This document shows, in pieces, positions 33,148-38,003 of a DNA stretch of 64,000 nucleotides. Source of the stretch: Candidatus Sericytochromatia bacterium (GTDB lineage: Bacteria; Cyanobacteriota; Sericytochromatia; S15B-MN24; UBA4093). Every line of letters starts with the position of its first letter. The first letter of the stretch is position 1. The stretch is taken from positions 64,001-128,000 of the forward strand of contig JAKFCT010000080.1 of assembly GCA_036676495.1 (NCBI GenBank), in the 5' to 3' direction. The notes beneath the pieces are model-generated. The model was not told where the DNA came from. It made no database searches and saw only the letters and a list, made by a program, of their open reading frames with translations. Made by a program: the position numbers and the translations under genes.

Positions 33148-33177
33148 GAAAGGGCCGCCGGGAATTCCCGGCGGCCC
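33148..33177 (-). terminator. Intrinsic terminator after Tyr-rich lipoprotein A
   Basis: GGGCCGCCGGGAATTCCCGGCGGCCC followed by TTTC on -. Confidence 0.7.
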
Positions 33178-33190
33178 CAGCGCGTGGGAT

Positions 33191-33739
33191 CTAGTAGCCC
33201 CAACCGTAGGCGTACGGCCAGTAGTTGTAGCCGTAGCGGTAGAAGAACGGGTAGTAGGAGTACGAGTAGTAGGGATAGTAGTACGGGTAGTAGAAGCCGG
33301 TGTTGTAGTAGTACGGGAAGTAGAAGTTACGGAACGGGAAGAACGAGAAGCTGCGGAAGCGGCTGCGGAAGAACGGCGAGAAGCCTCTGCGGAAGAAGAA
33401 GCGGCTGCGACGCCACTGCTGAATATCGGAGTCGGATCCCTGGTCCATGACTTCATTGGGATTGAGCTTGACGAGCATCTTGGCGGCATCGGCTTCCGAG
33501 ATGCGCGCGGGCAACTGCTTGCGGATTTCGTCGAAGCTCATGGCCTTGCCATCGACCATGATCTGGCGTTCACCGGAGACAAGGCTATCCGGGGCAGCGT
33601 CTCCACCGGGGACGCTCTGAGCTTGCGGGATCACGGCAGGAGCCTGGGTCGAGGCAATGGGCATGCTGCTCGAGCAGCCAAGGGTCCCACCGATCAGCCC
33701 TGTGGTCAAAGCTAGACCGAGCCATCGCTTCGCGCTCAT
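33191..33739 (-). CDS. Tyr/Arg/Phe-rich lipoprotein precursor A (unrecognised family)
   Basis: GGAGG RBS; lipobox TLGC; shared domain QIMVDGKAMSFDEIRKQLPARISEADAAKML; tail begins after IQQ. Confidence 0.85.
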   Translation of the reverse strand: MSAKRWLGLALTTGLIGGTLGCSSSMPIASTQAPAVIPQAQSVPGGDAAPDSLVSGERQIMVDGKAMSFDEIRKQLPARISEADAAKMLVKLNPNEVMDQGSDSDIQQWRRSRFFFRRGFSPFFRSRFRSFSFFPFRNFYFPYYYNTGFYYPYYYPYYSYSYYPFFYRYGYNYWPYAYGWGY

Positions 33740-33827
33740 GCGATAAGTACCTCCCTTATCGGTCGCGGACGAGGTTTCGCCCGACTCCGGGCGCCGCCTT
33801 CGTGACGCGCCATCGACTACGCTTCAT

Positions 33828-33856
33828 AGGCTACCCTTGACCATGGATTCGGGCAA
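33828..33856 (-). promoter_or_regulatory. Promoter of lipoprotein A
   Basis: TTGCCC-N17-TAGCCT. Confidence 0.5.
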
Positions 33857-34038
33857 CGCTCCCTCAGCTGGCCTGAAGGGGGGTGGGGCGGTCGCGCCAA
33901 ACCCCTGCCGTTACGCCCCATGCTCCGATGACGCGGGGGCGTCGGCACGGGGGGCGGCCTTCCGTTCGGGCAGCGCCGACAAAAATCCTCGGCATCTTGG
34001 CCATGGGGGGGAGAGGCGCGCGGGAGGTGGAGAAACGG

Positions 34039-34071
34039 AAAAAGGGGTCGTCGGGATTTCCCGACGACCCC
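34039..34071 (-). terminator. Intrinsic terminator after lipoprotein B
   Basis: GGGGTCGTCGGG...CCCGACGACCCC followed by TTTTT on -. Confidence 0.85.
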
Positions 34072-34083
34072 AGGACGTTTGGA

Positions 34084-34743
34084 TTACCAGCAGCCGCCGT
34101 AGCCGCCGAAGCCGCCGTAGCCCAAGCCGTAGCCGCCGTAGCCGCCGTAGCCCAGGCCGCCCAGGCCGCAACCGTAGGTATAGGGGAAGTAGCTGCCGCC
34201 GTAGCCGTAGAGGTAGGGCGAGCAGAGGGTGTTGGCGAAGTTGTAGGAGTACGGGTAGTAGTAGCCCGCGTTGTAGTAGTACGGGAAGTAGTAGCTGGAA
34301 TAGGGGAAGAATCCGAGGCCGCCGAAGCCCAGACCGCGACCGAAGCCCAAGAAGCGACTGCGGAAGCCCAGGCCGCCGTGGAAGCCGCGCCCGATGAAGC
34401 CGCGACCGCCAAAGCGCCCGCGCCACTGCTGGGTATCGTAGTCACCGTCCTTGGCCACCTTATCCATGTCGAGCTTGACCAGCATCTTGGCGGCGTCGGC
34501 CGCGGAGATGCGGGCGGGCAACTGCTTGCGGATCTCTTCCATGGTCATCGCCTTGCCGTTGACCATGGTCTGGAAGTTATCGACCAAGAGCTGGTCGGGG
34601 GCGACATCGCCGTTCGCCACGGCTTGCACCTGCGGGATCTCGGGAGTTTGCGCGGCAGGGACGTTCGGAACGTTCTGCGCGCAACCGACCGTGCCCATGA
34701 GACTCGTTGCCAGGGCCAGGGTCAAAATCCGAGTCGCTTTCAT
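34084..34743 (-). CDS. Tyr/Gly/Arg-rich lipoprotein precursor B (unrecognised family, 219 aa)
   Basis: Likely start MKATRIL at 34743 after AGGAGG, inside the longer 34084..35487 ORF. Lipobox TVGC; QTMVNGKAMTMEEIRKQLPARISAADAAKML; TQQW. Confidence 0.85.
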   Translation of the reverse strand: MKATRILTLALATSLMGTVGCAQNVPNVPAAQTPEIPQVQAVANGDVAPDQLLVDNFQTMVNGKAMTMEEIRKQLPARISAADAAKMLVKLDMDKVAKDGDYDTQQWRGRFGGRGFIGRGFHGGLGFRSRFLGFGRGLGFGGLGFFPYSSYYFPYYYNAGYYYPYSYNFANTLCSPYLYGYGGSYFPYTYGCGLGGLGYGGYGGYGLGYGGFGGYGGCW

Positions 34744-34828
34744 GCGGAGTGACCTCCTATTCTCACCTGTCGTCACGGCGACCCCCCTATTGGTCTGTCG
34801 TCTTGACGAGCTGTCGCCTATGGGGCAT

Positions 34829-34858
34829 AAGGTAACGCCTCCCGTTGTCCTCCAGCAA
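34829..34858 (-). promoter_or_regulatory. Promoter of lipoprotein B
   Basis: TTGCTG-N18-TACCTT. Confidence 0.45.
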
Positions 34859-35153
34859 CGCCTACTCCGCTGGCTGGAACTCCCGGGGGACGGTCGGGCC
34901 CAACCCCTGCCGTCTCGCCACGAGGGGGCGCGCGCCGTGCGCTCTGGCGAGCCGCCTAGCGGCAGTTGCGGGAGGGCCCGCCGAAAACGTTGGTCCGAAA
35001 CGCCCCGGCGTCCAAGTAGTCGTCCTGCATCGAGGGCCCGTGGCCCTTTTGCTGGAAACTCGCGCCTGCCACGTGGCCGTCTTCCGAGCCCCCCCACGAA
35101 GGGCTGCGCCATGGCCACGGGGGCGACGCTCACGCGAAACGGCCCCCGAACGC

Positions 35154-35185
35154 AAAAGCACGGCGCCCCCGAAGGAGCGCCGTGC
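35154..35185 (-). terminator. Intrinsic terminator after lipoprotein C
   Basis: On -: GCACGGCGCTCC-TTCG-GGGGCGCCGTGC-TTTTG (cUUCGg loop). Confidence 0.8.
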
Positions 35186-35197
35186 GAAGGGAGCGCT

Positions 35198-35773
35198 TTA
35201 CCAGTAGTAGGAGTAGGGGTAGTAGTAGCCGCCGTAGCGGTACATGTACGGATAGTAGGAGTAGGAGTAGTAGGGATAGGTGTACGGGTAGTAATAGCCC
35301 GCGTAGCGATAGTACGGGTAGTAGTACCCGCGGTGGCCGTAGTAGCGGAAGCGGCCGTAGCCATAGCGGCCGTAACCATACCGGCCGTAGAAGCCCCGTC
35401 CGAAGCCCCGCGCGTAGCCCCGGCCGTAGAATCCGCGTCGGTAGCCCCGGCCGTATCTCTGCTGGACCTCGAGGCCCTTGTCTTCAACGATCTTCGAGGT
35501 GTCGATCTCGATCAGCAGCTTGGCGGCATCGGCTTCCGAGATGCGCGACGGCAACTCCTTTCGGATCTGCTCGACGTTCATCGGCTGTCCGTCCACCATG
35601 ATCTGGCGATCATTCTGAATGTGTTGGTCAGGGGCGATGCTGCCTTCGCTGAGGTTTTGAACCTGGGGAACGTCGGCCGGCGTCTGGGCGCCCGGGATCG
35701 CCGGCGCGCAGCCCAGGGCGGTGCCCACCAAGGCCGTGCTCATCGCGATCCCTAGAGTCCGATTCACTCTCAT
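35198..35773 (-). CDS. Tyr/Gly/Arg-rich lipoprotein precursor C (unrecognised family)
   Basis: AAGGAGG RBS; lipobox ALGC; QIMVDGQPMNVEQIRKELPSRISEADAAKLL; VQQR. Confidence 0.85.
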   Translation of the reverse strand: MRVNRTLGIAMSTALVGTALGCAPAIPGAQTPADVPQVQNLSEGSIAPDQHIQNDRQIMVDGQPMNVEQIRKELPSRISEADAAKLLIEIDTSKIVEDKGLEVQQRYGRGYRRGFYGRGYARGFGRGFYGRYGYGRYGYGRFRYYGHRGYYYPYYRYAGYYYPYTYPYYSYSYYPYMYRYGGYYYPYSYYW

Positions 35774-35838
35774 CAGGGGTTTCCCTCCTTAGATAAACCG
35801 CCAGCTGATGCGATGACGGTTGCGTGAACGCAGGGCAA

Positions 35839-35868
35839 AAGCTAACGCTTCTTCGGAGCCCAAGGCAA
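35839..35868 (-). promoter_or_regulatory. Promoter of lipoprotein C
   Basis: TTGCCT-N18-TAGCTT. Confidence 0.45.
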
Positions 35869-36050: not shown

Positions 36051-36755
36051 ATGAGCGACTTGCGTTGGAATCTCACGCCCGCGGAGGCAATCGCCATGCA
36101 GCGCGAGCTCGCGGGGCGCGTGCGCTGCGAGGACGATTTCCCACCCCCGCGAACGGTCGCCGGAGTGGACGTCTCGACCTCGCGCGGCTCCGAGGACGGC
36201 TTCGCGGCCATCGTCGTGCTGAGCTGGCCCGAGCTCGCCATCGTCGACAAGGCCCACGCCCGCATGCGCCTTCCCATGCCCTATGTCCCAGGCCTCCTGT
36301 CCTTCCGGGAGGTTCCTTTGGCCCTCGCCGCCTACGCGCGCCTCACGGTCGCGCCCGACCTGATCATGGTCGACGGACACGGTCGGGCTCACCCCCGCCG
36401 GGTCGGAGTTGCCTGCCACCTCGGCATTCTGCTGGACAAACCCACGCTCGGCTGCGCCAAGTCCATCCTGGTGGGCACGCACGCCGACCTGGGACCCGAA
36501 CGCGGAAACACGGCGCCCCTGCTCCACCGCTCCGAGGTGGTCGGGTACGCCGTGCGAACCAAAACCAAGGTCAATCCCGTTTTCGTCTCATGCGGGCACC
36601 GCCTCTCCCCGGAAACCGCCGTGCGCTGGGTCCTCGACTGTGCCCGCGGCTACCGCCTCCCCGAGCCGACCCGCCAGGCCCACCTCGCCTCCAACGCCTT
36701 TCGACTCAGCGAGGGGGAGTCGGAACCGGATTCCGGCCTGCCACCGACTCGATGA
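36051..36755 (+). CDS. nfi: Endonuclease V (deoxyinosine 3' endonuclease)
   Basis: VAGVDVS, PYVPGLLSFRE, MVDGHGRAHPRR, GCAKS, PVFVSCGH, RLPEPTRQAH. Confidence 0.95.
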   Translation: MSDLRWNLTPAEAIAMQRELAGRVRCEDDFPPPRTVAGVDVSTSRGSEDGFAAIVVLSWPELAIVDKAHARMRLPMPYVPGLLSFREVPLALAAYARLTVAPDLIMVDGHGRAHPRRVGVACHLGILLDKPTLGCAKSILVGTHADLGPERGNTAPLLHRSEVVGYAVRTKTKVNPVFVSCGHRLSPETAVRWVLDCARGYRLPEPTRQAHLASNAFRLSEGESEPDSGLPPTR

Positions 36756-37824
36756 GCAGCTTCATGCGGGCCAGGTCGTCATCCATCTCATGCTTGGGAT
36801 CCGCACCGAAGGCCGTCGCCACCGCATGGCCGACCATGCCCGCCGGCGGGTGGTAGCGCATCTGAACATGCAGGCGCGTGCTCCCGTCCGGGTTCTCCTG
36901 CAGGTGAAGCGTGCCCGTGTGAGCCACGGCCGAGCCCGGTACGCTCCGCCAGCTGATCAGCGCGTTGGGGATCGTCTGGATCGTCTCGGCATCCCACTCC
37001 ACCGCCACGCCCGCCGGCCCGCTCACCACCCAGTGCGACCTCCCCTCCCCGAGGTTCCGCACCTCCCGGATATGCCGCATGAAGCGCGGGAAGTTCTCCG
37101 GCCGGCTCCAGAACGCGTAGACCTCCGCGATCGGCGCGTTCACCGTCAGGGTCTTCTGGACGCTGAAGCCCCGGCCCTCCATGCTCAGCAGCTCGCGGAT
37201 CTCGCGGTTGGCGATCGCCCGGATCACGAGCCCCGTGCCCCAGAGCGCGAGCCCCGTCCCGGCGATCCCGCGCCGGCCCAGCCCCAAGAGCAGTAGCCCG
37301 CCGCCTCCGAGGCCTACCACCAGCCGATAGGCCGGCGACCAGAAGCGTCGAGACGGCCCGAGGGACGTCCCCCCCGAGAGCATGGGCAGGTCCGCCTGCT
37401 CATGCCGATCCAGCCGATCCGTGATCGCCACGACCCCCGGCACCCTTCGGATGGCGTCGAGCGCCGCCCCCGCCTCCGCCGCGAGAATCGGGCCGCTCAG
37501 CGTCACCGCTCCCTCGCGCGCCGTCACCGCGACCGCATGCGCATGCGAGCAATGACGTCCCAGCTTCGCCCGGACCCGGGCCACCAGGATGTCGTCGTCC
37601 ACCGCCTCGCTGCGCAGCCGGCTCATGGTCGCCGCCACGCGCCCCGAGACCCGATTGCTCAGATCCCGGCCCGCGACGTCGAGCCCTTCCCGGCTCACGC
37701 GCGTCAGCCGGATCGCCTTGCCGCGCAAGAGCGCCCTCCGGCGCCTCCCGCGATCCGGATCTCCCAGGTAGGTCAAGCCCGCTCCGAAAGCCAACCCTCC
37801 GAGCATGGCCCATGCCTTGTTCAT
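36706..37824 (-). CDS. BON domain + SRPBCC (cyclase/dehydrase) protein
   Basis: Start MNKAW after GGAGGAG. DPDRGRRRRA; BON DDILVARVRAKLG..GAVTLSG; SRPBCC VYAFW..ENFPRFM..SHWVVSGPAG..DDLARMKLLIE. Confidence 0.85.
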   Translation of the reverse strand: MNKAWAMLGGLAFGAGLTYLGDPDRGRRRRALLRGKAIRLTRVSREGLDVAGRDLSNRVSGRVAATMSRLRSEAVDDDILVARVRAKLGRHCSHAHAVAVTAREGAVTLSGPILAAEAGAALDAIRRVPGVVAITDRLDRHEQADLPMLSGGTSLGPSRRFWSPAYRLVVGLGGGGLLLLGLGRRGIAGTGLALWGTGLVIRAIANREIRELLSMEGRGFSVQKTLTVNAPIAEVYAFWSRPENFPRFMRHIREVRNLGEGRSHWVVSGPAGVAVEWDAETIQTIPNALISWRSVPGSAVAHTGTLHLQENPDGSTRLHVQMRYHPPAGMVGHAVATAFGADPKHEMDDDLARMKLLIESVAGRNPVPTPPR

Positions 37825-38003
37825 GGTGACTCCTCCCCCCTCATCGGCCGGTCCATCTGAGCGCCGTCCTCCGCCGCTCACGCCTCCTCCCGCGGGGCGC
37901 CCGCTAACCAACGAGCGTTCTCAGGCTCCCTTCACATGTGTTAATAAAGTAGGCGTCGGCGCAAGGGCGGCTTGCCTCGGGCGGGGAACGGGAGGAAGCA
38001 AGG

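Follow-up and report, generated by a model that had tools for sequence, protein, structure and literature searches.

Three adjacent genes for small, tyrosine-rich putative lipoproteins in a bacterium of the class Sericytochromatia raise the question of what kind of protein they encode and what such a protein might do. The genes, here called A, B and C, are paralogs that lie side by side on the minus strand at positions 33191-35773 of a stretch of 64,000 nucleotides (the window; Candidatus Sericytochromatia bacterium, GenBank assembly GCA_036676495.1, contig JAKFCT010000080.1, positions 64,001 to 128,000), where they are flanked by mnmA and nfi. To our knowledge, Sericytochromatia, which are related to cyanobacteria but not photosynthetic, are known only from metagenome-assembled genomes, and we know of no description of their cell envelope. 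A first-pass annotation of the window had described A, B and C as lipoprotein precursors with a conserved core of no known family and low-complexity Tyr-rich tails, and had proposed self-assembling envelope proteins or cationic peptide precursors as their function. The best overall explanation that we can offer, held with a little less than even confidence, is that they are envelope-anchored lipoproteins with a single domain built from two separate parts of the sequence, which serves as a binding platform.

The coordinates and the Pfam matches of the flanking genes (mnmA, PF03054, E = 3.9e-63; nfi, encoding endonuclease V, PF04493, E = 1.5e-75) agree with a three-gene array on the minus strand, as first described. 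Gene A (33191..33739, -) encodes a lipoprotein precursor of 182 amino acids (P0001), gene B (34084..34743, -) one of 219 (P0002) and gene C (35198..35773, -) one of 191 (P0003). The proteins can be aligned over their full length, with identities to A of 54% for B and 47% for C, and the G + C contents at third codon positions (0.81-0.88) are similar to that of mnmA (0.88). An ortholog of A shares 80% identity at a ratio of nonsynonymous to synonymous substitution rates (dN/dS) of 0.26. A lack of purifying selection had been named beforehand as an observation that would speak against the proposal; what was found is purifying selection overall, with dN/dS values of 0.26-0.29 in four ortholog pairs. 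That A, B and C are three real lipoprotein genes is virtually certain. The start of B was assigned to MKATRIL at 34743 by its Shine-Dalgarno site and the N-termini of its orthologs. The open reading frame (ORF) around B is longer and would encode 467 amino acids (34084-35487, -); the extra 248 codons upstream cross the terminator of C and overlap the 3' end of C in another frame. This extension is spurious, of a type characteristic of high-GC DNA. On the plus strand, A, B and C are all covered by long antisense ORFs.

All three precursors start with a signal peptide that has a basic n-region, a hydrophobic h-region and a lipobox Cys at position +1. The signal peptides end in ...GGTLGC (A), ...GTVGC (B) and ...TALGC (C), and in the alignment the lipoboxes TLGC, TVGC and ALGC, the core motif and the Tyr module are read as they had been before. 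The lipobox Cys is residue 22 in A, where signal peptide and Cys occupy 33674-33739 (-) according to the ORF reading, residue 21 in B and residue 22 in C. A lipobox Cys, detected by a pattern of our own modelled on the PROSITE lipobox rule, is conserved in 82 of the 92 hits of the core-only search described below, in line with the envelope anchoring proposed in the first place. The genome encodes the enzymes Lgt (PF01790, one match, E = 2.2e-87) and LspA (PF01252, two matches, E ~1e-36) as well as Omp85 proteins, and LolA gave no match in this genome, which is 91.9% complete. The two LspA copies, at G000:C47:48493-48906 and G000:C34:28644-29060, have nearly equal scores. From their sequences, A, B and C are predicted to be exported and lipid-anchored.

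The mature proteins consist of a core, a loop and an aromatic block. In A, the alignment of the three proteins together with the AlphaFold2 model places the core at amino acids 49-109 (33413-33595, -), an Arg/Phe-rich loop at 110-138 (33326-33412, -) and an aromatic-Pro repeat block at 139-182 (33194-33325, -). By alignment, B has its core at amino acids 48-107 (34423-34602, -), an Arg/Gly/Phe loop at 108-150 (34294-34422, -) and the aromatic-Pro repeats with a GGY-type C-terminal extension at 151-219 (34087-34293, -); in C, the core comprises amino acids 47-106 (35456-35635, -), an Arg/Gly/Tyr loop 107-149 (35327-35455, -) and the repeat block 150-191 (35201-35326, -). To judge the aromatic block, 104 sequences of the family were aligned. 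Its four Pro columns contain Pro in 104, 94, 102 and 101 of the 104 sequences, the residue after each of them is Tyr or Phe in 104, 98, 99 and 95, and the median spacings between the columns are 10, 12 and 11 residues. Since the Pro columns and their spacing are fixed, the block is a four-fold repeat of the type aromatic-x-Pro-aromatic with a length of about 11 residues and not the outcome of compositional drift. Of the 92 hits of the core-only search, whose query did not include the tail, 78 had at least two aromatic-Pro-aromatic motifs and 81 had a window of 60 amino acids with at least 30% aromatic residues; among 215 neighbouring ORFs, a single one has such a window. When the tail by itself served as query, all hits were family members (6 hits among 483 candidates). 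Core and aromatic block thus appear, by sequence, always to go together.

AlphaFold2 predicted a fold for both parts. For P0001 (23 sequences), the predicted local distance difference test (pLDDT) gave 77-94 for the core and 69-93 for the tail, with a predicted template modelling score (pTM) of 0.59; for P0003 (104 sequences), the values were 81-96 and 88-96 with a pTM of 0.61, and the five models had mean pLDDT values of 67.3-69.3. In the P0003 model, the core is a beta-hairpin with two short helices, and the tail forms six strands connected by two-residue turns, a beta-meander that is packed on the core helices; the strands of the predicted sheet carry aromatic residues on both faces. The prediction of a trimer (three copies of residues 46-191 of P0003) had a score of 0.00 and counts neither for nor against assembly. 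The models suggest that the Tyr block is probably a folded domain, and the view of it as a low-complexity tail is not supported in the light of the near-invariant Pro columns, their fixed spacing and the confidently predicted meander.

The segments around the two folded parts are much more variable. The tether between the lipobox Cys and the LP of the core motif is 27-63 residues long (median 43) and rich in Pro, Ala, Thr and Gln. From the LP to the first Pro column, 48-122 residues were counted, and the loop in between consists of 29% Gly and 14% Arg (104 members). In some relatives the loop is His/Gly-rich, and in members of 150 residues (P0045-P0053) it is almost absent. The Arg/Gly block had a pLDDT below 50 in the models of P0001 and P0003, and is predicted to be a disordered, dispensable loop of variable length. 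Charge is distributed unevenly: the N-terminal part has a net charge of -4 to -6 and the C-terminal part, of which 32-53% is aromatic, one of +7 to +13. Some members have Phe in place of Tyr. In three relatives, the last 70 residues contain 0-1% Tyr and 27-46% Phe, and FFFPFFF takes the place of YYFPYYY. This sub-group (P0090, P0084, P0095) has Phe at nearly every Tyr position and Asp-rich turns (FFFPFFFD...DDDFPFF). Therefore, the conserved property is aromatic packing and not the Tyr hydroxyl, and chemistry of the dityrosine or dihydroxyphenylalanine (DOPA) type, the former of which had been named as something to test for, is not the common mechanism of the family.

The C-terminus varies as well. 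The last residue is aromatic in 73 of the 104 canonical members (W 44, Y 26, F 3), and an aromatic residue stands in one of the last two positions in 51 of the 92 core hits. Many members extend past the fourth repeat with Pro/Thr/Gln-rich, acidic or GGY-type sequences, and since such extensions are common, a free aromatic residue at the C-terminus is not required. Among ten long variants picked from the 92 core hits and scanned, three (P0070, P0092 and P0111) end in a cupredoxin domain (PF00127/PF13473). A full-length cupredoxin fusion is present in 1 of 27 genomes of the window's own order (G021; 55% identity to P0092, E = 2.6e-80), and the Pfam scan found no cupredoxin in A, B or C. In G021, the fusion gene is immediately preceded by a gene for cytochrome c (PF00034, E = 6e-13) and by a second, partial ORF that contains a CxxCH motif (locus L063, G021:C634, 937-2052, 2147-2920 and 3080-3403, all on the minus strand); this single-strand set may be a small electron-transfer operon.

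How far the family reaches was determined with profiles. A profile of the three proteins matched only A, B and C in the home genome (4.1 Mb, 106 contigs) and found homologs in 21 of 40 relatives. All 24 relatives' ORFs open with a start codon and encode a signal peptide with a lipobox Cys, followed in the same order by a tether, the core (LPxRISxADAAKxLVxID), an Arg/Gly/aromatic block and a Tyr/Pro block; an architecture that recurs in 24 of 24 homologous ORFs is far beyond chance. A search for related loci with an alignment of ten sequences gave two loci, and the closest named records were from Candidatus Sericytochromatia bacterium. In large protein collections, homologs are named "hypothetical protein" only and carry no Pfam domains. 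A profile search with the core, a check proposed with the first description, was carried out with a core-only profile of 57 positions: among 1,835,955,588 representative proteins, 92 clusters were hit at E <= 0.001 and 19 at E <= 1e-10. Two of the 92 hits are unrelated repeat proteins. The core was present in 22 of 26 genomes of the window's own order (Sericytochromatia-type) with one to five copies each, often in tandem, and the search detected it in none of 20 genomes from the remaining orders of the class. When the phylum was sampled evenly, the core was detected in 19 of 22 own-order genomes, in 0 of 13 from those remaining orders and in 0 of 115 from other classes, where non-detection in incomplete genomes does not prove absence. 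By these sequence searches the family appears restricted to one order of Sericytochromatia-type bacteria.

Within the order, A, B and C fall into three separate clades of the tree (Shimodaira-Hasegawa-like approximate likelihood ratio test values 97, 95 and 99), each with orthologs from other assemblies. Therefore, the triplication is old and all copies were retained, which bears out the idea of a paralog-diversified family. Further tandem arrays were seen at L059 (G008:C11:181000-184500) and L028 (G005:C21). Their members are more divergent: the core is reduced, the Arg/Gly blocks are long and the C-terminal extensions are rich in Gln or Cys. The core profile therefore does not capture the whole size and variability of the family.

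By kind, the proteins are bacterial lipoproteins, and by sequence comparison their mature domain is in no described family. Pfam and NCBIfam gave nothing significant for A, B and C, profiles of PDB sequences nothing better than E = 0.22, so that the earlier statement of a core without known family stands; the best score in the ESM Atlas was 0.82, with no family. A Pfam scan of the 104 members gave only four low-complexity matches in single members, among them Lamprin, glycine-rich protein and keratin head; Lamprin (PF06403, E = 0.0016) and GRP (PF07172, E = 0.0095) matched 1 of 104 members each and none of A, B and C. PF01473 (choline-binding repeats) had no match among the 104 members at E <= 0.01. 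Two candidates were tried and rejected. ExbD/TolR (PF02472) matched P0003 only, with E = 0.016 and 15.7 bits against a cut-off of 25.4, and a profile-profile comparison of the core with 17 ExbD sequences from relatives gave a probability of 0.42%. The SLH domain (PF00395) was not found in A, B and C at E <= 10 or in the 104 members at E <= 0.01, and its sole trace was an S-layer protein with SLH that was matched at E = 1.5 along 18 positions in the PDB-profile search. Foldseek searches with the models of P0001 and P0003 gave a best E of 3.9 for both, and VIA-align over 48,161 chains best Z-scores of 2.9 and 3.4 for the two models. As far as Foldseek and VIA-align reach, the predicted fold is unmatched; both worked on predicted models and not on the domain folded alone, and the absence of a given family from their lists does not exclude that family. 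A literature search found no description of such a family; supplementary tables, which may list its genes as hypothetical proteins, were beyond its reach.

Each gene has its own expression signals, all on the minus strand. Shine-Dalgarno sites are located 10 nt before the ATG of A (GGGAGG, 33750..33755), 9 nt before that of B (AGGAGG, 34753..34758) and 10 nt before that of C (AGGAGG, 35784..35789). Every stop codon is followed by a GC-rich hairpin of 12 bp and a run of U, and none of 200 shuffled sequences was as stable. The terminator-like hairpin after A (33151..33178; 12-bp stem, 4-nt loop, then UUU) had a z-score of -5.27 and -38 kcal/mol over 51 nt, the one after B (34044..34071, then UUUUU) a z-score of -5.21 and the one after C (35158..35185, then UUUU) a z-score of -4.60; a scan for terminator consensus listed the hairpins of B and C and not that of A. 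A ribosome-binding site and a terminator for each gene, as annotated before, are thus well founded. The scan also listed a weak 6-pair hairpin within gene A (33400-33417, -), most likely a chance match.

Upstream alignment revealed a promoter-like element, TTGcc-N17/18-TAgcTT, approximately 90-115 nt upstream of each gene: TTGCCC-N17-TAGCCT for A (33828..33856, -), TTGCTG...TACCTT for B (34829..34858, -) and TTGCCT...TAGCTT for C (35839..35868, -). Across the six regions aligned, those of A, B and C plus three from orthologs, TTG and TA...T do not vary and stand 17-18 nt apart. The promoter-like element claimed initially is supported in this respect, but a consensus promoter scan found no site at the locus, and the label "promoter-like" is used because of conservation and not of a consensus score. 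Downstream of the element, the leaders of A (33740-33835, -), B (34744-34838, -) and their orthologs share the stretch ccGTAGnCGAc..CGTCAaGACGgC. Compared with Rfam, the 5' leader belonged to no family; the best match was BjrC68 (E = 0.0084; 22.6 bits, where the gathering score is 39), and this sub-threshold match falls on a terminator hairpin. The consensus fold of the leader is weak (-4.7 kcal/mol).

Beyond mnmA and nfi, the locus is surrounded by genes for a NUDIX hydrolase, a major facilitator superfamily transporter and a BON+SRPBCC protein. The latter (36706-37911, -; SRPBCC, polyketide cyclase/lipid transport) may be envelope- or stress-related, and its gene (cluster 17) is kept beside the locus within the same genus. 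Elsewhere, the neighbours are ABC (ATP-binding cassette) transporters, patatin, aldehyde dehydrogenase and CAAX protease, and "cluster 15", which lies beside two family genes, is just a generic ABC ATPase domain. No conserved gene for a protease, an exporter or an immunity protein was found near the family loci examined.

From these data a model can be proposed in which A, B and C are monocistronic paralogs, each with its own signals. The precursor would consist of a signal peptide with the lipobox Cys, the Pro/Ala/Thr/Gln tether and one compact alpha+beta domain that is assembled from two distant parts of the sequence. The first part would be the acidic core, a beta-hairpin with two short helices that carry LPxRISxADAAKxLV; the second would be the four aromatic-x-Pro-aromatic repeats, which would lie as an antiparallel beta-meander on the core helices. 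A disordered cationic Arg/Gly/aromatic loop, His/Gly-rich in some relatives, would be inserted between the two parts. An aromatic sheet next to an Arg-rich loop is a type of surface suited to binding sugars or polyanions. The protein would stay lipid-anchored in the envelope and offer its aromatic sheet, flanked by the cationic loop, as a platform to which envelope polymers (glycans or polyanions), the loops of adjacent copies or both could bind, and the paralogs would differ mainly in the valency of their loops and in their C-terminal extensions. An abundant structural or adhesive component of the envelope would fit, because the genes are multi-copy, arranged in tandem and equipped with strong signals, and a structural or binding role in the envelope is tentatively suggested. 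A further elaboration, which we consider rather improbable, is a two-part sticker: the folded, nearly all-aromatic sheet, with a fold not seen before, would be a "landing pad" to which the flexible, multivalent Arg/Gly (or His/Gly) loops of neighbours bind by cation-pi contacts, so that the copies knit into a gel-like layer on the membrane surface, with the paralogs setting valency and spacing and with cargo such as cupredoxin held in the layer.

Several observations weigh against this model. The fold comes from AlphaFold2 alone, whose confidence could be inflated on repetitive aromatic sequence, and the overall pTM of the two models is just 0.59-0.61. By region, dN/dS of the tail ranges from 0.25 to 0.94 at a tail dS of 0.13-0.25; these values are unreliable because dS is depressed by Tyr codon bias, and constraint on the tail is not shown by itself. 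The gene neighbourhood is not informative for function: neighbours differ between genera, and synteny with mnmA and the NUDIX gene is confined to one family of genomes. Finally, nothing indicates that the proteins stand in for a missing tether. SLH-domain proteins, the usual tether between outer membrane and wall in this phylum, are encoded in 47 of 47 genomes of the class, and a function as replacement tether was rejected for this reason.

The composition of the C-terminal parts permits a different view, in which the Arg/Gly and Tyr blocks are disordered stickers through which the proteins self-assemble on the envelope as a coat, a fibre, an amyloid or a condensate; dityrosine cross-links may or may not be involved. 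The high content of aromatic residues and the positive net charge fit such a function, as do the GGY-type extension on B, the tandem multi-copy arrays that recur in relatives and the weak, single-member Pfam matches to self-aggregating structural proteins, and cation-pi contacts between Arg and Tyr have been discussed as a driving force of condensates (PMC13339138). Nevertheless, we regard it as unlikely: the Tyr block has Pro columns at fixed spacing and a sheet predicted at a pLDDT of 88-96 in contact with the core, the exchange of Tyr for Phe in some members rules out Tyr cross-linking as a shared property, and the short members P0045-P0053 exist nearly without the Arg/Gly loop. The cupredoxin fusions raise the question of whether core and aromatic domain are a membrane-proximal pedestal or docking module on the periplasmic face for electron transfer or metals, with the stand-alone forms as adaptors. 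The fusion downstream of the cytochrome c gene and the CxxCH ORF, the His/Gly-rich loops of some relatives and the lack of a LolA match would agree with this idea, but fusions are rare, A, B and C have no cupredoxin, most members end right after the fourth repeat, and at 13 stand-alone loci no redox neighbour was seen among those neighbours, a part of the total, that were scanned with Pfam. Since a fusion may merely show that the module tolerates cargo, a pedestal is, in our opinion, a rather remote explanation.

Two more proposals concern the C-terminus. Aromatic strands with a final Trp, Tyr or Phe resemble the beta-signal of outer membrane proteins, and the proteins could become inserted in the outer membrane or the BAM machinery, or could act on either; alternating aromatic strands in the tail, the aromatic last residue of most canonical members and the Omp85 proteins of the genome point in this direction. 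A beta-signal is nevertheless very improbable, as one of the last two residues is aromatic in just 51 of 92 core hits, the repeats of many members are followed by long Pro/Thr/Gln-rich, acidic or cupredoxin extensions, and the models show a soluble alpha+beta domain with both strand faces aromatic and no barrel. Release of the tails as cationic antimicrobial or signalling peptides, the second function proposed by the first-pass annotation, would suit the cationic and aromatic C-terminal halves, but conserved genes for processing, export or immunity are missing nearby, the conserved lipobox indicates anchoring and not release, tail and core are predicted to fold together, and the paralog clades, old and stable as they are, do not look like the product of an arms race. 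This proposal has, in our opinion, next to no likelihood.

The envelope-anchored two-part domain, if correct, has some consequences. As a multi-copy envelope component spread across one order, with no relatives elsewhere in 1.84 billion representative proteins, the family would mark this lineage and would probably help to determine how the cells of this order build their surface or make use of it. With 40-50% aromatic residues, invariant prolines and nevertheless a well-ordered sheet in the prediction, the domain would have an unusual fold and would offer a natural test of aromatic-proline packing. It also cautions that an extreme Tyr/Gly/Arg composition should not by default be taken for a "disordered sticker". 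If loops do bind to pads, Arg-Tyr driven assemblies would have a counterpart in bacteria, outside the cytoplasm.

How does the family compare with known systems? With small lipoproteins of the Lpp type it shares the lipobox signal peptide, the small size, the strong Shine-Dalgarno site, the promoter-like element and terminator of each gene and the multiple copies; unlike these, it has a new mature domain, no coiled coil and no C-terminal Lys for attachment to the wall, and its members end mostly in Trp or Tyr. The sulfur globule proteins SgpA-C, plant glycine-rich proteins and lamprin are likewise Gly/Tyr-rich and exported from the cytoplasm, but they are polymers of repeats that lack both a lipid anchor and a conserved globular core, whereas the family has fixed Pro positions and a predicted fold; the likeness to Sgp is one of composition alone. 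FUS-type RGG and Tyr-rich regions and mussel foot proteins use the same chemistry of Arg, Gly, Tyr and Trp, with cation-pi and pi-pi contacts and adhesion. Those regions are disordered; in the family, only the Arg/Gly loop is predicted to be disordered, the Tyr block is a predicted sheet and the protein is predicted to be lipid-anchored outside the cytoplasm. In RelE/ParE and microbial RNase-like alpha+beta folds, N-terminal helices also lie on a C-terminal antiparallel sheet. The best VIA-align rows were 8oxj_B (Z = 3.4, root-mean-square deviation 2.8 over 70 residues) and 5czf_C (Z = 3.1, root-mean-square deviation 4.5 over 75 residues), and Z-scores of 2.0-3.4 are far below the level of a shared fold and reflect a general shape only. 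Choline-binding or YG repeats (PF01473), finally, are short aromatic strand-turn repeats of envelope proteins, which bind wall polymers and present aromatic surfaces to ligands, as proposed here for the aromatic block, but the repeat of the family has about 11 residues and not about 20, is attached to a helix-hairpin core and has no sequence match to PF01473.

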